DNA of 9,892 bases, taken from a virus. Its lineage: Duplodnaviria; Heunggongvirae; Uroviricota; Caudoviricetes. Location: IMG/VR virus record IMGVR_UViG_2579779077_000004; one strand, given 5' to 3'. Positions within the stretch are counted from its first letter, which is position 1; each line of letters opens with the position of its first letter. The notes beneath the pieces are model-generated. The model saw nothing but the letters and a program-made list of their open reading frames with translations. It was not told the DNA's origin and ran no database searches. Positions 1 to 9,892 of the stretch are shown here, one piece after another. The translations under genes and the position numbers were made by a program.

Positions 1-1
1 G

Positions 2-88
2 CATAACGTGCCCACCAGCAGGGAGAAAGCACGCGCCAATATTCAGAAGATGAAAAACATGATTAACGGATTCAGGGGCAAGAAATGA
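2..88 (+). CDS. Possible 3' end of an upstream gene running off the window edge (…VPTSREKARANIQKMKNMINGFRGKK*)
   Basis: Frame 2 is open from the window edge to TGA at 86-88, which overlaps the ATG at 85 in an ATGA arrangement. No start is visible and no family is recognised. Confidence 0.2.
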   Translation, partial: HNVPTSREKARANIQKMKNMINGFRGKK

Positions 89-1482
89 AAAGCGCACCGA
101 ACTTAAAAAAACAGCCTTACGACAAGATGACCGAAGTCATCATTTTTGCGGGTAGTGATGCGTGGGCACATGCGAAACAGTGGCAGGAACAGGACGGGCG
201 ACTGGCTGGCGATAATGTGCCTCCCATTGTGCTGGCTGATGATCAACTGGATGAACTGGCAGACCTGAGAATCATCGACGAGGGGCGCTATTGTGTCCGG
301 CTGTACAAGGCAGGCCACATCAGGCCATCAAATATTAATGCCATTGCGCACAAGCTGGCGGCGGCGGGCGTAACTGATGCGAATTATTACCCCGAAGGGA
401 TACACAGCCAGAAGCGGGAGAACTGGCGCGAATATCTGGAACGGGAGCTGGGGAAAAAGCCAGGGGAAGAACACCACCAGCGAAAAACCACGCTACCGAT
501 GAGCGTTGGATCTGCCGGATACGACACGCAATTAGATTACGTGGTAAAGGGGATTATTCCGGCATCGTCGCTATGCAGCATATACGGGGCAAGCGGTTCC
601 TATAAATCATTCCTTGCCGGATCGTTGGCGTGTCACGTTTCCACGGGCCGCCAGTGGGGAGGCCGCAGGGTGGCGCATGGCGCTGTTCTCTATGTGGTTG
701 GTGAAGGCGGTATCGGCGTTCCGCGTCGTGTAAAAGCCTGGGAGGTTGTGCACGGTGAGCAGGTGAAAAATCTGTATCTGGTAAACCGTCCCATATTTCC
801 GGCGGTCCCGCTTGATGTTGATGAAATGGTTATCGCTGCCCGTCAGGTGGAGCGGGAAACGGGTAAACCTGTACGCATGATTATTCTTGATACTCTGGCG
901 CGTTGCTTTGGTGGCAATGATGAAAATGATTCCCGTGATATGGGGGCGTTTATCCGTGGGTGTGACGAGCTTAAACGGCGCACAGGGGCCACGGTGCTGG
1001 TGGTTCACCATTCCGGCAAGGATGAGACGAAAGGCGCGCGTGGTTCCAGTGCATTTCGTGCTTCGCTGGATGCTGAATACCGGATACGCAGGGAGGACGC
1101 AGGAAGCGAAGCGCTGGTTATCTCATGCACCAAAATGAAGGACGCGGAGGAACTCAAAGAGGCTGCCTATGACTTACGCGTGGTGGAGCTGTTTACCGAC
1201 GCTGACGGGGAGTTAATCACGTCGCTGGTGGTGGTGGATAAGCCGCGTCCTCCCGTTGAACTGGAGCGCATCGAGGAGGCAGGCAACAAGACGGAAAACC
1301 ATACCGCACTATGGGGGTGCATCCGGTCACGCACACAGCACGGCGACAAGTGCACGATCCCGCTGTTACGTGATGACATGAAAAAACTGGGGTATGAAAT
1401 GAAAAACTTCCGGCGCTGGCTGTACAAGCTGGAAAAAGATGGGGTTATTCGTATCGATGGGGATGATGTAGCGCCGCTATAA
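85..1482 (+). CDS. Replication initiator / helicase-like protein: RecA-fold ATPase (AAA_25/RepA-DnaB-like) with an unassigned N-terminal domain and a probable C-terminal winged-helix DNA-binding domain
   Basis: 465-aa ORF with AGGGG about 8 nt upstream of the ATG. P-loop-like motif GASGSYKS, Walker-B-like hydrophobic stretch ending in D (VRMIILDTLAR), and the RecA/DnaB-like motif LVVHHSGKDETKG. The C-terminal 70 aa (…MKKLGYEMKNFRRWLYKLEKDGVIRIDG…) looks like a winged helix. An iteron array follows immediately downstream. Confidence 0.8.
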   Translation: MKSAPNLKKQPYDKMTEVIIFAGSDAWAHAKQWQEQDGRLAGDNVPPIVLADDQLDELADLRIIDEGRYCVRLYKAGHIRPSNINAIAHKLAAAGVTDANYYPEGIHSQKRENWREYLERELGKKPGEEHHQRKTTLPMSVGSAGYDTQLDYVVKGIIPASSLCSIYGASGSYKSFLAGSLACHVSTGRQWGGRRVAHGAVLYVVGEGGIGVPRRVKAWEVVHGEQVKNLYLVNRPIFPAVPLDVDEMVIAARQVERETGKPVRMIILDTLARCFGGNDENDSRDMGAFIRGCDELKRRTGATVLVVHHSGKDETKGARGSSAFRASLDAEYRIRREDAGSEALVISCTKMKDAEELKEAAYDLRVVELFTDADGELITSLVVVDKPRPPVELERIEEAGNKTENHTALWGCIRSRTQHGDKCTIPLLRDDMKKLGYEMKNFRRWLYKLEKDGVIRIDGDDVAPL

Positions 1483-1677
1483 AAGTGAGGAGCAAAAGCG
1501 AGGGGGGTAGAAAGAGGGCCAAAATTAGCCTGCTCTCCCTCACTTTTCGACCTGTATACATCCTCAAAAGTGAGGGGTAAAAAAATACTTATGAAACACA
1601 CACATAGAAAAACCAAAAATCCCAACTGCGACGAAGTGAGACGCTTGAAAAAGTGAGGCGAAAAAGTGAGAGGTTGC
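1482..1677. repeat. Iteron array, putative origin of replication
   Basis: Direct copies of AAAGTGAG(G/A) at 1482-1490, 1566-1576, 1649-1658 and 1661-1673; degenerate copies at 1494-1503 (AAAGCGAGG), 1511-1519 (AAAGAGGGC) and 1633-1641 (GAAGTGAGA); one inverted copy at 1537-1547 (CCCTCACTTTT). An AT-rich stretch sits between them at 1578-1620. The array lies directly 3' of the rep gene. Confidence 0.6.
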
Positions 1678-1682
1678 GAGAA

Positions 1683-1934
1683 ATGACCCAAAAACGCAGA
1701 GACAGAACAGAGCCGAAATATAAGGCGTTAGATATGGCTGAACTGGCTTTAAAGGTGGCAATCAGAACGATAGACCGCCACGCGGGGGAAGGATACGCGA
1801 AAGCACATCCCGAACTGATAAGCGCATTCATGACCACGACGGCGGCAAATTTTGCCACGCTGACAGAACGGGAGATTGCCGAAGCGGAACAGGTAACAAC
1901 AATCAACGTTAAAACCGGAGAGGTGGAATCATGA
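1683..1934 (+). CDS. Hypothetical small protein (83 aa)
   Basis: ATG at 1683 with GAGAGG 10-16 nt upstream. The ORF track gives an upstream in-frame start at 1653, but that lies inside the iterons with no RBS. The TGA stop overlaps the next ATG (ATGA at 1931-1934). No recognisable family. Confidence 0.45.
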   Translation: MTQKRRDRTEPKYKALDMAELALKVAIRTIDRHAGEGYAKAHPELISAFMTTTAANFATLTEREIAEAEQVTTINVKTGEVES

Positions 1935-2236
1935 GCGAACCAAAATTTGGTGAAAAATTTTACAAGCACAACGGACGGATCACGATTCTGCAAATAAGCG
2001 CAGCTACACCAGGCTGGTGGGTTGAAACAGACGAAGGATCCTCACCCGTGGCATCATGGGCGCTTTGTGTGCTTAGTTACCCTGACCGCGATGTGTATCA
2101 GGATATTCTGCCTGTGATATCCACTGACAAAGGCATGAAACCCGTAGACATCAAAAACATGGGGTTTCAGTGCGTAATGCTCACTGAAAAAATGATGGAA
2201 GAGATGAAAAAGAACAATGCCGGATCGCTTCACTGA
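1931..2236 (+). CDS. Hypothetical protein (101 aa)
   Basis: Strong RBS GAGAGGTGG 5-13 nt upstream of the ATG at 1931, which is translationally coupled to the preceding ORF. No recognisable family. Confidence 0.55.
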   Translation: MSEPKFGEKFYKHNGRITILQISAATPGWWVETDEGSSPVASWALCVLSYPDRDVYQDILPVISTDKGMKPVDIKNMGFQCVMLTEKMMEEMKKNNAGSLH

Positions 2237-2245
2237 GGTGGCAAT

Positions 2246-2656
2246 ATGACAGCACAAATTGCAGCTTACGGGCGGCTGGTGGACGACCCGCAGGTAAAAC
2301 AGAGCAGCAAGGGCACACCGATGACTCTGGCGCGTATGGCGGTATCGTTGCCATGCAGCCAGGCACATGACGGACAGGCGACGTTATGGTTATCGGTTAT
2401 CGCATTTGGCAAACAGGCCGATTTCCTGGCTAAACATCAAAAAGGCGATGTTGCCAGCGTATCCGGCACGATGCAGGTAAGCCAGTGGACCGGACAGAAC
2501 GGGGAAACGCGGCGGGGGTATCAGGTTATTGCAGACAGCGTAATCAGTGCCCGCGCGGCACGTCCAGGCGGGAACAGACGCAAAACCACAGGCACACAGG
2601 GTAATCAGCCACCAGCGGGAGGCGATGACCCTTACGGTGACGGTATTCCGTTCTGA
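2246..2656 (+). CDS. ssb: Single-stranded DNA-binding protein (short SSB, OB fold)
   Basis: RBS GAGGTGG upstream. The N-terminal stretch IAAYGRLVDDPQV resembles the SSB motif (…VGNLGQDPEV…), there is a conserved W…FGK…A core, a Gly/Pro/Gln-rich linker, and a C-terminal acidic tail ending DDPYGDGIPF (compare the canonical SSB end …DDDIPF). Confidence 0.75.
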   Translation: MTAQIAAYGRLVDDPQVKQSSKGTPMTLARMAVSLPCSQAHDGQATLWLSVIAFGKQADFLAKHQKGDVASVSGTMQVSQWTGQNGETRRGYQVIADSVISARAARPGGNRRKTTGTQGNQPPAGGDDPYGDGIPF

Positions 2657-2666
2657 GGGGGTGACG

Positions 2667-2939
2667 ATGGCACATGACCGCATAGCGGAGGAACTCGAGG
2701 CAAAAGGCTTTTACCGGAGGGCGGCGGCGCGATGGGGTGAAGTCATGCAACTGGTGGAGACAGACAAGGAACGGCATCAGGTTACGATGCGACGGCTGGA
2801 ATGTTCCAGGAAGGCACAGAGGCCACCGGAGCCGCCGGATAACTTCGGAGACCTGAGAAAGGCAGTCGATCGCACTTATGCTGAAATGGGTATGGATGGT
2901 GTAAGCGATGAAATATGGCGTAATTACACAGACAGCTAA
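2667..2939 (+). CDS. PerC-family transcriptional regulator-like protein (90 aa)
   Basis: ATG at 2667 with GAGGGGG 6-12 nt upstream. The ORF-track start at 2547 would overlap ssb with no RBS. The N-terminal motif AEELEAKGFYRRAAARWGEVM matches my recollection of the PerC/Pch signature; this is a family-level call only. Confidence 0.55.
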   Translation: MAHDRIAEELEAKGFYRRAAARWGEVMQLVETDKERHQVTMRRLECSRKAQRPPEPPDNFGDLRKAVDRTYAEMGMDGVSDEIWRNYTDS

Positions 2940-2944
2940 TCAAC

Positions 2945-2966
2945 AGCCGGAGCAATCCGGCTTTTT
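2945..2966 (+). terminator. Rho-independent terminator after the PerC-like gene
   Basis: Stem AGCCGGA (2945-2951), GCAA tetraloop, TCCGGCT (2956-2962), followed by a T-run (2962-2966, then TTATTTTTT). Confidence 0.55.
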
Positions 2967-2986
2967 GTTATTTTTTGTAAATTATT

Positions 2987-3033
2987 TGTTCGTGGTTGTT
3001 CCACGTTGTTCACTGAGCGGATCGGCATATTTT
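2987..3033 (+). promoter_or_regulatory. Candidate promoter/operator for the head operon: three phased TTGTTC repeats and a sigma70-like -35/-10
   Basis: TTGTTC at 2987-2992, 2997-3002 and 3006-3011, spaced about one helical turn apart. The last one (-35-like) is followed after 16 nt by TATTTT at 3028-3033 (-10-like). A 5-bp inverted repeat CGTGG/CCACG lies at 2991-3005. Confidence 0.3.
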
Positions 3034-3087
3034 ACCCGAACTGAATCATGATTATTCTCGCCTGTGGTGCCAGGACGCTGGGGCCAC

Positions 3088-3135
3088 TTTCCCGCCTGTT
3101 AATGTGCTCGCCAATATTCATTACCAGGCGGGAAA
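3088..3135. promoter_or_regulatory. Perfect 11-bp inverted repeat in the capsid-gene leader (operator or RNA stem-loop)
   Basis: TTTCCCGCCTG (3088-3098) and CAGGCGGGAAA (3125-3135) are exact reverse complements separated by 26 nt. They are nested inside a 9-bp long-range inverted repeat, CCAGGACGC (3070-3078) and GCGTCCTGG (3187-3195). Confidence 0.35.
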
Positions 3136-3226
3136 ACGATCGGTGCGATTACTGATTTCCTTATGAAAAACGGTTGAGTGTTTGCCGCGTCCTGGAGTTC
3201 CTTACTTAACCCCAGGACTTTTTTTT

Positions 3227-4384
3227 ATGCCGAGAATAATCGAATTACGCCAGCAGAAAACCGCCATTAAAAATCAGATGCGCGACATGCTGGAGAACGC
3301 TGAAAAAGAAAACCGCAGTCTTAACGATGCTGAGGGCGCAAAATTTGACGAATTACGCGCTAAAGCTGAATCCCTCGATAAAGACATTTCCCGCCTTGAA
3401 GCCATTGCAGACGAAGAGCGCAGCAAGCCAGGTAAAAGCAGTCAGACCACTGACCCCGCAGAACTACGAAACTACATTCTGACGGGTGAAACCCGCGCAT
3501 TAAGTACAGGCGTTCCCGCTGATGGTGGTTATACCGTTATCCCCGAACTGAACACCGAAATCATGCGAATGCTGGCGGATGAATCCACCATGCGCCGCAT
3601 CTGTACCGTGAAGAAAATCAGCAGCAACGAGTTTAAGCAGCTTGTTTCCGCTGGCGGTGCGACCGTTAACCACGGTGAAGAGGGTAAGGCACGCGAACAG
3701 ACCAGCACCCCGCAGATTAACGAGGTGAGCATTAAGCTGTATCCGGTCTATGCGTACCCGCGCACCACACAGGAAATCGTGGATTTTTCCGATGTGGACA
3801 TCCTTTCATGGCTGACGGGTGAGATTGGCGACACCTTCACGGAAACCGAAGAAAGCGATCTGGTTGTGGGCGACGGTGACAAAAAAGCAAAAGGTTTTTT
3901 ATCCGTACCCCGTGCAGAGAAGAACGACAAAGAGCGTGATTTTGGTACGTTGCAGGTAATTAAACCTTCCGAATCTCTGGCGTGGACATCTGCGGACCCG
4001 CTGATCGACCTGAAATTTGCATTACGTAAAAAATACCGCAAAAACGCGGTCTGGGTGGTTAACTCCACGACGGCGGCAAAACTTCAGAAGGTGAAGAACG
4101 CGAACGGTGATTACATCTGGCGCGACCGTTTACAGGCGGGTGATCCTGATACGTTGCTGGGCCTTCCGGTCGAATATCTGGAGTTTATGCCTGATAACGT
4201 TATTGCCCTGGGTGACTTCAAACGCGGTTACTACATTGTTGATCACGAAACAGGTGTTCGCACCAGACCGGACAACCTCACAGAGCCGGGCTTCATCAAA
4301 ATTTTCACGCAGAAATATTTAGGCGGTGGCGTGGTGGATTCGAACGCGATCAAGATTCTGGAACTGCCACAGGACGACGATTAA
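3227..4384 (+). CDS. Major capsid protein, HK97 fold, with N-terminal coiled-coil delta (scaffolding) domain
   Basis: 385 aa from the ATG at 3227 (the ORF track begins at an upstream TTG at 3182). The N-terminus has a charged coiled-coil heptad pattern (IIELRQQKTAIKNQMRDMLENAEKENRSL…DELRAKAESLDKDISRLEAI), followed by a mature domain with HK97-MCP-like motifs (GGYTVIPEL…, …LLGLPVEY…). Confidence 0.9.
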   Translation: MPRIIELRQQKTAIKNQMRDMLENAEKENRSLNDAEGAKFDELRAKAESLDKDISRLEAIADEERSKPGKSSQTTDPAELRNYILTGETRALSTGVPADGGYTVIPELNTEIMRMLADESTMRRICTVKKISSNEFKQLVSAGGATVNHGEEGKAREQTSTPQINEVSIKLYPVYAYPRTTQEIVDFSDVDILSWLTGEIGDTFTETEESDLVVGDGDKKAKGFLSVPRAEKNDKERDFGTLQVIKPSESLAWTSADPLIDLKFALRKKYRKNAVWVVNSTTAAKLQKVKNANGDYIWRDRLQAGDPDTLLGLPVEYLEFMPDNVIALGDFKRGYYIVDHETGVRTRPDNLTEPGFIKIFTQKYLGGGVVDSNAIKILELPQDDD

Positions 4385-4394
4385 CAGCATACAG

Positions 4395-4423
4395 AAGGGG
4401 CTTAAAAGCCCCTTTAGTGTTTT
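4395..4423 (+). terminator. Hairpin with U-rich tail between capsid and protease genes (partial terminator or RNA stability element)
   Basis: Stem AAGGGGC (4395-4401), loop TTAAAA, stem GCCCCTT (4408-4414), then TAGTGTTTT. Confidence 0.4.
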
Positions 4424-4996
4424 ATGGGTGAAAAAATTATGAAGAGTATGGAAATCCGGTCATCGGAAATCACCACCAGCGGAGCCGGTACGCTGACGGG
4501 CTACGTTGTTCGCTGGGATAAGCTTTCAGAACTGTTATGGGGTGAGTTTTACGAAAAATTCCAGCGGGGGGCGTTTACTGAATGGCTTGCGGCGGGTAAT
4601 GACGTTCGCGGCCTGTATGAGCATGACCACAGTATGTTACTGGGGCGCACCCGTTCCGGCACGCTGAAACTGGAAGAGGACGAAACAGGGTTACGCTTTG
4701 AACTGACCCCACCGGATACCAGTACAGGGCGCGACGTTATCGAACTGGTTAAACGTGGTGATATATCCGGCATGAGCTTTGGCTTTCGCTCCCGTAAGGA
4801 TGTATGGGATACCACAACAGATCCATGCGTTCGTACCGTGCTGGTGGCAGAACTGTACGAAATTACCGTTACATCGGTACCGGCTTACCCCGATTCCGGC
4901 GTGGAGCTGGCCCGCCGTTCCCTGTATGAGCAGCACCCCGAAAAAATGCCGCGTGCGGATAATCGCCGCTGGTGGGTGGATTTAGCGGGGGTGTGA
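4424..4996 (+). CDS. Prohead maturation protease, HK97 family (peptidase S78-like)
   Basis: Motifs LYEHDHSMLLGRT and GDISGMSFGF are typical of HK97 gp4-type prohead proteases. The start is ambiguous between ATGs at 4424, 4439 and 4448. Confidence 0.85.
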   Translation: MGEKIMKSMEIRSSEITTSGAGTLTGYVVRWDKLSELLWGEFYEKFQRGAFTEWLAAGNDVRGLYEHDHSMLLGRTRSGTLKLEEDETGLRFELTPPDTSTGRDVIELVKRGDISGMSFGFRSRKDVWDTTTDPCVRTVLVAELYEITVTSVPAYPDSGVELARRSLYEQHPEKMPRADNRRWWVDLAGV

Positions 4997-4997
4997 T

Positions 4998-6209
4998 ATG
5001 TGGCCTTTCAGAAGAAAAAAAGAGCAGCGCAGCATGACGCTTGATGAATTTATGGCGCTGGCTGGCACATCGAACACGGGGGCGGGTGAGTACGTATCAT
5101 CGGGGACAGCGGAATCACTGCCCGCCGTCATGAACGCCGTGACGGTCATTTCTGAGGCGGTGGCTACCATGCCGTGTTACCTGTACCTGGTACGCAATGA
5201 GAAGGGGAAGGAGGCCCGCGAGTGGCTTGATTCTCATCCGGTCGATCACATCCTCAACGAGCGCCCGAACGCGTGGCAGACTCCCTACCAGTTTAAGCGA
5301 ATGATGATCCGCCACTGCCTGTTAAACGGTAATGCTTATGCGGTGATTCAGTGGGGGCGTGATGGTTTTCCGGTGGCTTTACATCCTTACCCGCCGCAGT
5401 CGGTGAACGTGGAGCAGACAGGCGAACACAACTGGCGCTACTGCATCACTGACGCTTACACCGGAAACACCCGCAACTATTTACCGTGGGAGGTACTTCA
5501 CCTTCGTTACTCCACGGATGACGGCTTTATGGGGCGCTCACCTGTAACCATCTGCCGCGAATCGCTGGGGCTTGGGCTGGCCCAACAACGCCACGGCGCG
5601 AGCGTGATGCGTGATGGCATGATGGCGGCAGGGGTTATCACGTCAGGCGAATGGCTGGACGGCGTGAAGGGCAAACAGGCATTAGCCGCACTGGAACGCT
5701 ACAAAGGGGCCAGAAACGCCGGAAAAACGCCCATCCTTGAAGGGGGGATGAGCTATCAGCAGCTGGGCATGAGTAATCAGGATGCTGAATGGCTGGCCTC
5801 CCGTCGCTTCACCATTGAAGACATCGCCCGAATGTTCAACGTCTCGCCGATTTTTCTGCAGGAATACAGCAACAGCACCTACAGCAATTTCAGCGAGGCA
5901 AGCCGCGCATTTCTCACCATGACGATGCGCCCGTGGCTGGCGAACTTTGAGCAGCAGATAAAAAACGCCTTGCTGGTGGTCTCGCCTGTACCTGGTATCC
6001 GGTATCAGGTGGAGTTTGACAGCGCGGACCTGTTACGGGCCACACCTGGCGAACGCTTTGCCACCTATGAGCGCGGCATCAAATCCGGCGTAATGTGTCC
6101 GAACGAAGCCCGCGAACGTGAAGGACTGTCACCGCGTGATGGTGGTGATGAGTTCAGCCAGGCATGGAAACAGGAAGTAAAAATCAGCGAGGGAGAAAAA
6201 CCGGAATGA
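4998..6209 (+). CDS. Portal protein, HK97 family
   Basis: 403-aa ORF with GCGGGGG RBS upstream of the ATG at 4998. Size and sequence character fit HK97-type portals. It begins 2 nt after the protease stop. Confidence 0.88.
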   Translation: MWPFRRKKEQRSMTLDEFMALAGTSNTGAGEYVSSGTAESLPAVMNAVTVISEAVATMPCYLYLVRNEKGKEAREWLDSHPVDHILNERPNAWQTPYQFKRMMIRHCLLNGNAYAVIQWGRDGFPVALHPYPPQSVNVEQTGEHNWRYCITDAYTGNTRNYLPWEVLHLRYSTDDGFMGRSPVTICRESLGLGLAQQRHGASVMRDGMMAAGVITSGEWLDGVKGKQALAALERYKGARNAGKTPILEGGMSYQQLGMSNQDAEWLASRRFTIEDIARMFNVSPIFLQEYSNSTYSNFSEASRAFLTMTMRPWLANFEQQIKNALLVVSPVPGIRYQVEFDSADLLRATPGERFATYERGIKSGVMCPNEAREREGLSPRDGGDEFSQAWKQEVKISEGEKPE

Positions 6210-6544
6210 ACATAGGGCGACTGCGTGACAGGATAACGATTCAGACCCTGAAACAGACCAGGGATATAACCGGCGAAATACTCGAAACGTGGGAGGACGG
6301 TCACACACTCTGGGCAAGCGTGAACATGGTCAGCAGCAAGGAGGCCATTTCATCGGGTGCAGAGCTGGCGATTGGTACCGTAAGGATCTGGATACGGTAC
6401 CGGAAGGACATCAACGCCACCAGCCGGATAAAGGTCAGTACGGGGCCGCTGGCGGGGCGTGTACTGAATATCATCGGGCAGCCGCTGCCGGATGCCGCCA
6501 GGACACGCCTTGAAATTCTTTGTCGTGAGGGCGCGGAAAAATGA
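6206..6544 (+). CDS. Head closure / head-tail adaptor protein (phage head-tail joining family, SPP1 gp16-like)
   Basis: ATG at 6206 overlaps the portal stop (ATGA) with GGGAGA 8-13 nt upstream. The ORF-track start at 6164 lies inside the portal gene. About 112 aa (MNIGRLRDRITIQ…), the size and pattern of this family. Confidence 0.75.
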   Translation: MNIGRLRDRITIQTLKQTRDITGEILETWEDGHTLWASVNMVSSKEAISSGAELAIGTVRIWIRYRKDINATSRIKVSTGPLAGRVLNIIGQPLPDAARTRLEILCREGAEK

Positions 6545-6837
6545 CAGAAGAACTTATCACCCTGGAAGAAGTGAAACTCCATTGCCGCATCGATGGCGAC
6601 GAGGAAGACCAGTTAATCAGCGGATACATTGCCGCATCGCTTGAGGCGTGCCAGATACACATAGGCAGGCGCTTTGATGACGGGCTGGAGTTCACGCCAG
6701 CCATAAAGATTGGCTGCATGATGTTTATCGCTCACCTGTATGAGAATCGCCAGATTGTCGCGGATAACGCAAAAACACGCGTACCCATGACGATTGGCGC
6801 ACTCTGGACGGCTTACCGTGATGTGGGGGTGTACTGA
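6541..6837 (+). CDS. gp6-like head-tail connector protein
   Basis: N-terminus LITLEEVKLHCRIDGDEEDQLISGYI resembles HK97 gp6-type connectors (…LTLEEAKAHLRVD…). ATGA overlap with the upstream gene; 98 aa. Confidence 0.8.
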   Translation: MTEELITLEEVKLHCRIDGDEEDQLISGYIAASLEACQIHIGRRFDDGLEFTPAIKIGCMMFIAHLYENRQIVADNAKTRVPMTIGALWTAYRDVGVY

Positions 6838-7277
6838 TGCCGTGGCAACCATTAAGACGATGCACAGAACCAGGCTGTAACAGGCGCGTTAAATCCGGCA
6901 AGTGTGAGGAGCACAGGCGGGCGGCATGGCGTGCAGAGGATGCCAGACGAGGACACCGCCGCGCGCGTGGATATTCCAGACAGTGGGACAAATACCGCGC
7001 CATGTATCTGAGTAAAAACCCGTTATGCGTGCGATGCCTTGAGAAGGGGATATATACGCCCGCCGTGGTGGTGGATCACATTATCCCGATTAATGGCGGT
7101 GATGATGTTCTCTTCTGGCCCGAATGGAACCATCAACCATTGTGTCAGGCGTGTCATAACCAGAAAACGAAATGGCTTGATCCGGCAACAAAAAGCAAGC
7201 GTGCCGCAGGTGGATTTCGTGAAGAGGAAGAACGGGCCGCTAACCGCAATAACTGGATGTATGACGCTGATGAATGA
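6837..7277 (+). CDS. HNH endonuclease, phage packaging-associated
   Basis: Cys-rich N-terminus (CTEPGCNRRVKSGKCEEH) and an HNH motif (VVDHIIPINGGDD…WNHQPLCQACHNQKT). The start overlaps the previous stop by 1 nt (TGATG). It sits just upstream of terS, as in HK97-like cos phages. Confidence 0.85.
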   Translation: MPWQPLRRCTEPGCNRRVKSGKCEEHRRAAWRAEDARRGHRRARGYSRQWDKYRAMYLSKNPLCVRCLEKGIYTPAVVVDHIIPINGGDDVLFWPEWNHQPLCQACHNQKTKWLDPATKSKRAAGGFREEEERAANRNNWMYDADE

Positions 7278-7446
7278 GCGGGAACAAAACCGCCTTATCC
7301 GTGGACTTATAAGGCAGCGTGACACATGGAAGACACAGGAAACAGGGCATAAAGATAAAGCGTCAGGACGCGCAGAACGCATCACAGCGAAGCGATTAAC
7401 CGACCGTGACCGCGAGGTTATGGAATGTTTCCGCAATCGCTGGTGA
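7261..7446 (+). CDS. Possible small basic protein (about 61 aa)
   Basis: ATG at 7261 in the +1 frame relative to HNH, overlapping its last 17 nt (MTLMNEREQNRLIRGLIRQRD…NRW). RBS is weak and no family is recognised. It occupies the HNH-terS spacer. Confidence 0.22.
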   Translation: MTLMNEREQNRLIRGLIRQRDTWKTQETGHKDKASGRAERITAKRLTDRDREVMECFRNRW

Positions 7447-7565
7447 TGCTGTATGACGGGGTGGGGGGCGTTTTCAGGACAAACCCGACCCCGCCGGGCA
7501 CCGAACGCCTCCTCAAATTTTTATGCACGGGAATTTTTTGAAAAATAATCTGGCGAAAAATAAGC
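7447..7565. other. Candidate cos / packaging-initiation region upstream of terS
   Basis: Non-coding spacer with a GC-rich element (GACGGGGTGGGGGGCG at 7455-7470, then CCCGACCCCGCCGGG) followed by an AT-rich stretch (AAATTTTTATGCACGGGAATTTTTTGAAAAATAATC). The assignment rests on position only. Confidence 0.3.
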
Positions 7566-7922
7566 ATGGCAAGACCACCGAAAGCCCCCGCCTACCTGGA
7601 TGACATCGCCGTGAAGCAGTGGCGGGAAAAATCGCGGCAGCTTGCGGAACGGGGAGACCTGACTCCCGCCGACTGGAGCAATCTGGAACTGTATTGTGTC
7701 AACTACTCCATTTACCGGAAAGCCGTTGCAGACCTTGCGGCGCGCGGGTTCAGCATTGTTAACAGTCAGGGCGGCGAGAGCAGAAACCCCGCATTAAGCG
7801 CAAAATCCGACGCTGAAAGAGTGATGATAAAAATGGCCTCCTTGCTCGGTTTTGACCCGATAAGCCGCCGTAAAAATCCACCGGAAACAGAAGAAGAGGA
7901 CGAGCTTGACCGCCTGGAATAA
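7566..7922 (+). CDS. terS: Terminase small subunit, P27 family
   Basis: 118 aa with a P27-family-like pattern (…LTPADWSNLELYCVNYSIYRKA…NPALSA…MIKMASLLGFDPISRRK) and an acidic C-terminus. Lies between the HNH and TerL genes. Confidence 0.85.
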   Translation: MARPPKAPAYLDDIAVKQWREKSRQLAERGDLTPADWSNLELYCVNYSIYRKAVADLAARGFSIVNSQGGESRNPALSAKSDAERVMIKMASLLGFDPISRRKNPPETEEEDELDRLE

Positions 7923-9567
7923 GTACGCAGAAGACGTAAAAACGGGCAAAATTCCGGCCTGTAAACGGCTGAAACAGGCCGTTAAACGGTACTTTTCGGA
8001 CCTTAAAAACCCCCTTTATACGTTCGATCGTGAGGTCGTGGAGCGGTTTATTGCCTTTTCCAGGGTGTGCCCGCACGTAAAAGGGCCGATGCGTGGCAGA
8101 CCCATTGAGCTGGAGCCGTGGCAGCAGTTCGCCTTTGCGTGCATCCTCGGCTTTAAGGTTAAGGCCACCGGACGGCGCAAATACACGAGCGCATTTATCG
8201 AAGTGCCGCGCAAAAATGCGAAATCCACGACCGCCGCGATTCTGGCTAACTGGTTTCTGATTATGGAGAACGGGCAGCAGGATATTTACACCGCAGCAGT
8301 GAGCCGTGACCAGGCGCGGATCGTTTTTGATGATGCGCGTCAGATGTGCCTTTTATCCCGACCGTTACGCAGGCGGGTGAATATTCAGGCCCACAAGGTG
8401 ATGCACCCGAAAAGCAACAGCCTGTTAAAGCCGCTGGCAGCAAAAGCGGCAACCATCGAGGGCACAAACCCAAGCCTTTCCATCGTGGACGAATACCACC
8501 TACACCCCGATAACGGCGTTTATTCCGCGCTTGAGCTGGGGATGGGCGCACGTCCCGAAGGGCTGTTATTTGCCATTACCACATCGGGCAGTAACGTCGT
8601 TTCAGCCTGTAAACAGCACTATGATTATTGCTGCCAGATCCTGGACGGCGAAGAGGTCAACGATTCAATTTTTGTGCTGATTTACGAGCTGGACGACGAA
8701 AACGAGGTTGATGATCCGGGGATGTGGATAAAGGCTAACCCTAACATCGATGTTTCCGTGGATCGTGAAAAACTGGCCTCAACCATCCAGAAAGCGCGGG
8801 GTATTCCGTCGCAATGGGTGGAGATGATGACAAAGCGATTTAATATCTGGTGCCAGGGGGCTACCCCGTGGATGGGTAACGGCGCATGGGTTGAGTGTGC
8901 CGGAACGTTCATGGAGGAAGATTTACACGGGCAGGAGTGTTACGCGGGGCTGGACTTATCATCAACCAGCGATATTTCCAGCGTGTGCTATGCCTTTCCG
9001 GTCGGTAAAACCATTATGCTGATTTCCCGTCATTATCTGCCGGAGTTCCAGCTACAGAACCCCGCCAATAAAAACCGCGCTGTCTATCGCCAGTGGGCTA
9101 AAGCGGGCTGGATACGCACAACGCCAGGTGACTGCATTGATTACGACCGGATCAGAGATGACATCATGCAGGATGCGGAGAAATTTAATATCAGGCTGGT
9201 GGGCTTTGATACGTGGAACGCCACGCATCTCAGGACGCAATTACAGGGGGCTGGTTTTGAGGTGGAGCCGTTCCCGCAAACCTACCTCAGATTCAGTCCG
9301 GCGGCGAAATCGTTCGAAGTTTTTGTTAACCGCAGGGTGATTGTGCATCGTGGCGATCCGGTGTTGTCCTGGTCGATGAGTAACGTCGTGATGCAGAGTG
9401 ACGCGAACGCCAATATCAAGCCGAACAAGAAAAAATCACCGAACAAGATAGACCCGAGCGTAGCGGCGCTGATGGCGTTTGGTACATTCCAGGCAGAGCA
9501 TGAGGATTTTGCTTTTGATATAAGCGACAGCCACCGCCAGAAACTGGAAGAATTTAGCGGGGTGTAA
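7906..9567 (+). CDS. terL: Terminase large subunit (ATPase plus nuclease)
   Basis: 553 aa. N-terminus WNKYAEDVKTGKIPACKRLKQAVKRYFSDLKN is typical of Terminase_1-type TerL. The apparent start is TTG at 7906 with GAGGA 5 nt upstream, overlapping terS by 17 nt in the +1 frame; there is no in-frame ATG or GTG between the upstream stop and this TTG. Confidence 0.9.
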   Translation: MTAWNKYAEDVKTGKIPACKRLKQAVKRYFSDLKNPLYTFDREVVERFIAFSRVCPHVKGPMRGRPIELEPWQQFAFACILGFKVKATGRRKYTSAFIEVPRKNAKSTTAAILANWFLIMENGQQDIYTAAVSRDQARIVFDDARQMCLLSRPLRRRVNIQAHKVMHPKSNSLLKPLAAKAATIEGTNPSLSIVDEYHLHPDNGVYSALELGMGARPEGLLFAITTSGSNVVSACKQHYDYCCQILDGEEVNDSIFVLIYELDDENEVDDPGMWIKANPNIDVSVDREKLASTIQKARGIPSQWVEMMTKRFNIWCQGATPWMGNGAWVECAGTFMEEDLHGQECYAGLDLSSTSDISSVCYAFPVGKTIMLISRHYLPEFQLQNPANKNRAVYRQWAKAGWIRTTPGDCIDYDRIRDDIMQDAEKFNIRLVGFDTWNATHLRTQLQGAGFEVEPFPQTYLRFSPAAKSFEVFVNRRVIVHRGDPVLSWSMSNVVMQSDANANIKPNKKKSPNKIDPSVAALMAFGTFQAEHEDFAFDISDSHRQKLEEFSGV

Positions 9568-9580
9568 TGAGGTCAGCAGC

Positions 9581-9862
9581 ATGACAGAAGCCGAAATACT
9601 GCGATTAATCCGCCGCGTCTCTGGAATCAGCCAGCAGGCTGACGAACAGACCACGCAGCCGGACAGCGTGACAGCCGAAAATTATGCGCGTGTTGTTGCT
9701 GAGGTGATGCGCCGTGATGGTATCCAGCTTAATGATGCGGATATGCGCGACATACGGATCCGCGTTCTGGAAATGCTGGCCTACAATCGCCGCGTTGAAC
9801 TGTATCGGGAGAAGGAGAAAATCACGTACCACTGGAAGAAGCCGGAGCGGTTACGGCGGTAA
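9581..9862 (+). CDS. Hypothetical protein (93 aa) downstream of terL
   Basis: ATG at 9581 with GAGG about 10 nt upstream. Charged, probably alpha-helical protein (MTEAEILRLIRRVSG…); no family recognised. Confidence 0.5.
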   Translation: MTEAEILRLIRRVSGISQQADEQTTQPDSVTAENYARVVAEVMRRDGIQLNDADMRDIRIRVLEMLAYNRRVELYREKEKITYHWKKPERLRR

Positions 9863-9892
9863 CTCACTGAGATTAAAGCAAAGCGCGAAATT

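Follow-up and report, generated by a model that had tools for sequence, protein, structure and literature searches.

The sequence IMGVR_UViG_2579779077_000004, a stretch of 9,892 nucleotides (hereafter the window), raises the question of which kind of mobile element carries a replication module directly in front of a set of phage head and packaging genes, with no tail genes following. The window is the entire contig AQGN01000102.1 (9892 bp) of a draft assembly (GCA_000647495.1). An earlier note, made from the sequence alone, had interpreted it as the core of a satellite resembling the phage-inducible chromosomal islands of the capsid-forming type (cf-PICIs) and not as an undescribed class. Our comparisons bear this out: the window is very probably about two thirds of an integrated cf-PICI of the EcCIEDL933 family. 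It is a near-copy of the prototype and belongs to a family described between 2022 and 2025, not to a new class.

EcCIEDL933 of Escherichia coli O157:H7 EDL933 is the prototype cf-PICI and has been characterised experimentally (Alqurainy et al., 10.1101/2022.09.08.507074; He et al., 10.1101/2025.02.11.637232; together the cf-PICI papers). It is induced by the helper phages HK106 and HK446 through alpA, forms its own small capsids (46 x 42 nm by electron microscopy; 47.5 nm and T=4 by cryo-electron microscopy), packages only itself and needs nothing from the helper except tails. According to the same papers, cf-PICIs measure ~10-18 kb, comprise an integrase together with one module for replication and regulation and another for exclusive packaging, and lack a lysis or tail module. 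In proteobacteria the layout is capsid, protease, portal and connectors, followed by hnh, terS and terL.

The plus strand of the window contains 15 closely packed genes, while the list of open reading frames (ORFs) has nothing credible on the minus strand. Public gene calls on the contig comprise the same 15 genes in exact agreement. Genes were identified by Pfam, PHROG and NCBIfam scans (Table 1). The rep gene with an iteron origin, the SSB, the regulator and the HK97-type head and packaging set named in the earlier note are all present at or near the positions given there, on the plus strand and with strong Pfam support; its list overlooked the 61-aa gene between hnh and terS. All eight head and packaging genes are present and intact in the published proteobacterial cf-PICI order. 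The window ORFs possess no tail, tape-measure, baseplate, fibre, holin or endolysin signature in the Pfam and PHROG scans, as had been claimed, and a tRNA scan of the window returned nothing.

DNA identity to EcCIEDL933 amounts to 97.3% for positions 2943-9864, which span the whole head and packaging module, 95% for 2235-2966 and 92% for 1681-1934. Both elements have the same gene order and share the SSB, PerC, the 83-aa gene and the last gene. The capsid protein is identical to that of EcCIEDL933 at 383 of 385 residues (99.5%) and matches PDB entry 9gyi_B with E=1e-255. Its start is the ATG at 3227, which corrects the TTG at 3182 of the mechanical ORF list. A SxGxxAD motif is located at residue 93, and the computed mass of residues 93-385 is 32,588 Da; the mature capsid protein of EcCIEDL933 has 32.6 kDa, its delta domain being cleaved (10.1101/2025.02.11.637232). 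Since both motif position and mature mass match the published values, the N-terminal region of the capsid protein is, as judged from its sequence, an HK97-type delta domain with predicted cleavage at residue 93. Of the parts that had been called uncharacterised, this one is consequently known, while the genes at 1683-2236 and 9581-9862 indeed lack an assigned function. By sequence, the closest solved capsid after 9GYI is that of the Rhodobacter gene transfer agent (RcGTA, 6TB9, E=9e-47); the HK97 capsid is not among the PDB sequence matches at E up to 0.001.

The window and EcCIEDL933 differ in a few places. The Rep of the window is a 465-aa AAA_25/RepA protein with its own iterons, whereas EcCIEDL933 has a 710-aa DUF927 Rep, with only the first ~121 residues in common. 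The 101-aa gene is absent from EcCIEDL933, which in turn has a 74-aa gene between perC and the capsid gene that the window lacks, and there is a 228-bp indel after the last gene.

The flanks of the window itself are not visible, and its genomic context was therefore taken from relatives. Of 5426 complete E. coli genomes searched by megablast, 1809 have a match and 270 contain at least 80% of the window, nearly always on the chromosome, so that the element is common. The closest complete genomes are FHI_NMBU_10 (98.1% identical over the full window) and 25-07338 (97.3%). In FHI_NMBU_10 the order is roxA, tyrosine integrase, AlpA (PF05930, E=5.5e-17), small genes, DUF4222, the window genes, a 52-aa ORF and phoQ, and 25-07338 has the same arrangement from roxA to phoQ. 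The gene roxA lies just before the integrase, and phoQ starts about 600 bp after the last gene in these 97-98% identical copies. A 26-bp direct repeat CGGTGTAGTTAATGGTGTAGTTAATT occurs in FHI_NMBU_10 just before int and again just after the last ORF, 14,510 bp apart. EcCIEDL933 occupies the same roxA/phoQ site in EDL933 and has the same att core. The integrase, alpA-like gene and att repeats that a cf-PICI should show in its flanks are thus found in FHI_NMBU_10, the gene order also in 25-07338, and in both genomes the whole element is free of tail, lysis or further phage genes.

This context bears directly on an alternative reading, in which the window belongs to an ordinary HK97-like prophage with tail, lysis and immunity genes immediately beyond its ends. 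In favour of such a reading, the head and packaging genes derive from phages, and the flanks of the window itself are out of view. It would lead one to expect contiguous tail, lysis and lysogeny genes in an element above 30 kb; in the two closest complete genomes the host genes roxA and phoQ adjoin instead, bounding a 14.5-kb element with att repeats at that distance. Furthermore, a search of 50,697 phage records yielded no bona fide full-size phage with a match to more than 20% of the window, and a replication module directly 5' of the capsid gene is not phage order. We consider an ordinary prophage extremely improbable.

Some points weigh against the cf-PICI assignment. The element's own integrase, alpA, att sites and right end lie outside the bounds of the window contig, and its completeness and context rest on the 97-98% identical relatives. 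The replicon differs from that of the prototype, and the working of its Rep and origin as a pair is predicted only; likewise, induction and transfer of the window variant are extrapolated from the prototype. In FHI_NMBU_10 several genes in the alpA-rep interval, including an ash-family gene, are annotated as pseudogenes (locus L001, 12876-14371), because of which some island copies may be decaying or losing regulatory genes. The pseudogenes, the contig broken on both sides and the predicted status of the Rep-origin pair would also fit a decaying, immobile remnant (a "cryptic prophage") that merely resembles a cf-PICI. Against a remnant stand the 15 ORFs of the window, all of them uninterrupted and closely spaced with start and stop codons that overlap, structural proteins 96-100% identical to those of a proven functional element, conserved cis elements (iterons, leader and cos block) and close relatives, 96-99% identical, among IMG/VR viral contigs. 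A remnant is accordingly very unlikely, if a little less so than an ordinary prophage, and an integrated cf-PICI remains the reading we adopt.

The ends of the window are assembly breaks, the left one inside the DUF4222 gene and the right one 30 nt past the last gene. Related islands with common flanking sequence in the same genome are a plausible cause. DUF4222 was assigned by Pfam (E=4e-25); its homologue in FHI_NMBU_10 is located at 14789-15088 of locus L001, and the window aligns from position 15001 of that locus.

The replicon of the window departs from that of the prototype. Residues 1-121 of Rep are 68% identical to the N-terminus of the EcCIEDL933 DUF927 Rep and the remainder is unrelated, so that helicase core, C-terminus and iterons have all been exchanged. 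Rep is chimeric (window 85-448 against 24039-24411 of EDL933 locus L002), one small N-terminal domain being fused to two different helicase cores. The replication module of the window consists of this AAA_25 Rep, a type unlike that of the prototype, and six clustered iterons: the 9.9 kb contain six AAAGTGAGG matches (at most 1 mismatch), and every one of them lies after rep and before the following gene, in the interval that also contains the direct-repeat families D1 and D2. The cluster with its A/T-rich stretch has the look expected of an iteron origin, which we infer it to be. Among complete E. coli genomes, 660 of 5426 possess the RepA-type rep and the origin. Relatives of the RepA-type rep occur at 80 loci across Enterobacterales; a match to the cf-PICI capsid gene downstream of rep is present at only 8 of them, and seven of these have the whole head and packaging module. 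The window is thus a natural replicon-swap variant of the prototype, with the same heads and tail-specificity proteins, another Rep and origin, and an additional orphan gene in the rep-adjacent hotspot. Such a swap is the usual modular exchange (mosaicism) among PICIs and does not make a new kind of element.

The steps from induction to tail joining have been shown for the prototype and are transferred to the window on the basis of 96-100% protein identity. A helper lambdoid phage would switch on the island through AlpA, upon which the island would excise and replicate. Replication would start with binding of the RepA-type Rep to the six iterons at 1482-1671, aided by the island SSB, a step proposed from sequence. 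The 385-aa capsid protein and the portal would assemble small T=4 procapsids, the S78 protease would remove the 92-residue delta domain, and HNH, TerS and TerL would act at the island's own cos site, putatively within the conserved block 7458-7548, to cleave and package a single island genome of ~15 kb. Adaptor and connector would close the head, to which a helper-phage tail would then be joined. In EcCIEDL933 these two proteins determine tail choice (10.1101/2025.02.11.637232); with a connector 100% and an adaptor 96% identical to the EcCIEDL933 proteins, the window element is predicted to use HK106-type siphovirus tails.

Several known systems resemble the window in part. Classical Gram-negative PICIs (EcCICFT073, EcCIED1a, EcCIMP1) have the same int-alpA end (seen in the relatives of the window), rep with iterons, PerC-like genes, a size of 10-15 kb and dependence on a helper phage. 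However, they have no capsid, portal, protease and terminase set of their own and redirect helper proteins, whereas the window encodes its own set. HK97 and the HNH-dependent cos phages share with the window the HK97-fold capsid with cleaved delta domain, the S78 protease, the gp6-like connector, and HNH, P27-type TerS and TerL. Unlike HK97-type phages, the window has no tail, lysis or immunity genes, and its module is permuted, with the capsid gene first and terS/terL last; heads are T=4 in EcCIEDL933 and T=7 in HK97. Satellite P4 is also integrated and helper-dependent, with small heads that receive helper tails, but it builds these from the capsid protein of its helper P2, whereas the window element encodes capsid and packaging proteins itself.

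The main import of the locus is that a cf-PICI can be recognised from raw sequence by a reader without tools. The new points are modest: the replicon-swap variant with its orphan cassette, the block that probably contains cos, and a conserved, structured leader with a possible role in regulating the head genes. Leader and putative cos block offer concrete cis elements for the timing of head-gene expression and the start of packaging, questions left by the cf-PICI papers.

Table 1. Features of the window, in order of position
Feature	Position	Strand	Remarks
DUF4222 gene, 3' end	1..88	+	cut by contig end; overlaps rep start
Rep, replication initiator/helicase, RepA/AAA_25 type, 465 aa	85..1482	+	AAA_25 E=2e-43; phrog_2850 full length
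Replication origin (inferred)	1482..1671	.	six iterons of AAAGTGAGG type around an A/T-rich stretch; one is inverted
Small gene, 83 aa, no assigned function	1683..1934	+	phrog_1231 full length (function unknown); 90% identical in EcCIEDL933
Orphan accessory gene, 101 aa	1931..2236	+	clean cassette without counterpart in EcCIEDL933
SSB	2246..2656	+	Pfam SSB E=3e-16; 97.8% identical to EcCIEDL933 SSB
PerC-family regulator, 90 aa	2667..2939	+	Pfam PerC E=7e-44; 94.4% identical to EcCIEDL933 protein
Terminator-like hairpin and T-run after perC	2945..2972	+	left edge of the 97% block common with EcCIEDL933
Conserved box TTGTAAATTATTTGT	2975..2989	+	probable regulatory/promoter element of capsid operon
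Structured non-coding capsid leader	3064..3226	+	SL1 3064-3087 (loop GACG); SL2 3088-3135
Leader block GCGTCCTGG	3187-3195	+	complementary to SL1 (3070-3078) and to 3212-3218
Last leader hairpin	3189-3218	+	followed by U8 (3219-3226) and ATG; hides Shine-Dalgarno AGGA; resembles intrinsic terminator
HK97-fold major capsid protein, 385 aa	3227..4384	+	Phage_capsid E=2e-61; TIGR01554 HK97 family E=5e-88
Capsid delta (scaffolding) domain, residues 1-92	3227-3502	+	mature protein predicted from residue 93 (3503)
Terminator-like hairpin 3' of capsid gene	4394..4415	+	
Prohead serine protease S78	4424..4996	+	Pfam E=7e-48; 97.4% identical to EcCIEDL933 protein
Portal protein	4998..6209	+	Pfam E=9e-91; 99.3% identical to EcCIEDL933 protein
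Head completion protein ("head-tail adaptor" of cf-PICI papers)	6206..6544	+	Phage_HCP E=2e-23; 108/112 identical (96.4%) to EcCIEDL933
gp6-like head-tail connector	6541..6837	+	Phage_connect_1 E=8e-12; 98/98 identical to EcCIEDL933
HNH endonuclease, needed for cos cleavage	6837..7277	+	Pfam HNH; phrog_144; 99.3% identical to EcCIEDL933
Small basic ORF, 61 aa	7261..7446	+	overlaps hnh end; phrog_3173 (function unknown); called in RefSeq relatives and source record
Conserved non-coding block, putative cos with IHF-like site	7458..7548	.	GGGGTGGGGGG..TTTCAGGACAA..CCTCAAATTTTTATGCACGG..TTTTTTGAAAAATAA
Small terminase, P27 family	7566..7922	+	Terminase_4 E=1e-23; TIGR01558; 100% identical to EcCIEDL933
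Large terminase	7906..9567	+	TerL_ATPase and TerL_nuclease domains; 98.2% identical to EcCIEDL933
93-aa gene, right-end variable region, no assigned function	9581..9862	+	phrog_1561 (function unknown)

Between perC and the capsid gene the window contains a conserved box and a structured leader (Table 1). In the first 10 upstream regions of cf-PICIs that were aligned, the core of the box TTGTAAATTATTTGT does not vary, and the box occurs only once in the whole related element. In all 62 leaders having both, it lies 5' of the SL1 loop at a distance of 95-97 nt. The box probably serves the capsid operon as a regulatory or promoter element. A sigma-70 scan detected no convincing promoter for the head operon. 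A sigma-54 -24 box was considered, since TGGCAC is present in SL1 of other cf-PICIs, and rejected: no TTGC occurs at the appropriate distance, and TGGCAC is missing from the E. coli lineage.

Compared with shuffled sequences, the leader fold reaches z=-3.9 in the window and z=-5.4 in another single leader, and the last hairpin z=-3.2. Over 29 diverse leaders SL1 is 99.6% paired, with both sides changed at 5 of 9 pairs. The long-range alternative, in which SL1 pairs with the downstream block, is 98% paired. For each of the two partners open to it, one column of SL1 shows Watson-Crick pairs of three different types, although the covariation of SL1 and of the long-range pairing stems from only two or three independent lineages. 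SL2 has 22 distinct arm sequences in 57 unique leaders, with a median perfect stem of 11 bp versus 5.9 bp in shuffles, and contains G-U pairs on the plus strand. RNAalifold independently predicts SL1 and the Shine-Dalgarno hairpin. CsrA-type GGA loops, also considered for the leader, are no general feature of the lineages.

A profile of the leader gives 68 matches in 2.5 Mb of loci, one per locus and always just 5' of a capsid homologue, and none in Rep loci without capsid genes. Among the 50,697 phage records only three possess the leader, namely the cf-PICI vB_KppS-Ant, a 3.8-kb fragment and a 106-kb record with an apparent cf-PICI segment. The last is the record of Klebsiella phage P12620-1 (PQ569648.1), in which this segment is located at about 90.6-102.3 kb. 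Scanned against Rfam with a threshold of E up to 1, the complete window yielded only a chance snoRNA match, and the leader therefore belongs to no known RNA family, including P4 CI/C4. The two cf-PICI papers mention no promoter, terminator or leader; the conserved structured capsid leader appears to be cf-PICI-specific and undescribed in the searchable literature.

Box and leader (2975-2989; 3064-3226) might together constitute a cf-PICI-specific RNA switch that gates read-through or translation of the whole head operon, a tentative proposal that we hold to be possible but on balance doubtful. SL1 would either pair with the downstream block, or fold alone and leave the block to form a hairpin hiding the ribosome-binding site; in the E. 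coli lineage U8 follows this hairpin. An AlpA-type antiterminator may cooperate in the gating. The same covariation pattern would also arise from co-evolving inverted DNA half-sites for a protein, and the strictly constant spacing between box and SL1 could reflect an architecture at the DNA level.

Three terminator-like hairpins (2945-2972, 3189-3226 and 4394-4415) are located within one co-directional gene array. Expression of the head operon would have to pass the structured leader and these hairpins (from 2945, 3189 and 4394), an arrangement fitting read-through control. AlpA of Pseudomonas aeruginosa is a Q-like antiterminator; this, the three hairpins and the presence of AlpA in the relatives suggest that the island's own AlpA may control read-through of the head operon by antitermination, a reasonable idea by analogy.

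The second non-coding element, the block between the 61-aa ORF and terS, is conserved in nine cf-PICIs of several genera whose proteins are only ~60-80% identical. In the linear record of the induced cf-PICI vB_KppS-Ant both ends fall inside this block. The record lacks ~70 bp within the block, so that it does not allow the cut site to be placed. The block is a probable cos region and has a putative IHF-like site. vB_KppS-Ant itself (LR881103.1, 16.5 kb) was deposited as an induced phage and is a cf-PICI.

PADLOC, Pfam and NCBIfam gave no match for any of the four small proteins of 83, 101, 61 and 93 aa. In EDL933 the 83-aa gene directly abuts ssb, and the 101-aa gene of the window is a precise cassette between the two. 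A collection of 5.8 billion proteins contains no more than 8 clusters of the 101-aa protein, which are near-identical and come from E. coli throughout; its AlphaFold model (pLDDT 49) is too poor for a fold search. Its position adjoining rep corresponds to an accessory and immune hotspot described next to pri/rep in PICIs (PMC11364771); a defence role would be a guess. The Tai tail-assembly inhibitor was considered for the rep-adjacent genes and rejected: the position fits, but the one Tai size found is ~26 kDa and no similarity was detected. The PerC-family regulator downstream of ssb is of a kind that is reportedly common in Gram-negative PICIs (PMC11773190).

The 61-aa ORF is conserved in EcCIEDL933 and retained at 44-52% identity in 4 distant cf-PICIs. 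In EcCIEDL933 the capsid gene is gene 1786, and mutation of the hypothetical gene 1792 severely cuts transfer (cf-PICI papers). Gene counting from 1786 indicates that the 61-aa ORF is probably gene 1792.

The 93-aa protein is likewise conserved in EcCIEDL933 and has 965 clusters; the 120 listed are all annotated as "hypothetical" and all from E. coli where a source is named. It was not found in cf-PICIs of other genera. Its model is a three-helix bundle of medium confidence (pLDDT 69), with no viral fold match at E below 0.4 and no PDB sequence match. At the corresponding place vB_KppS-Ant possesses a 765-aa gene (locus L083, 2036-4333) that is annotated as tape measure.

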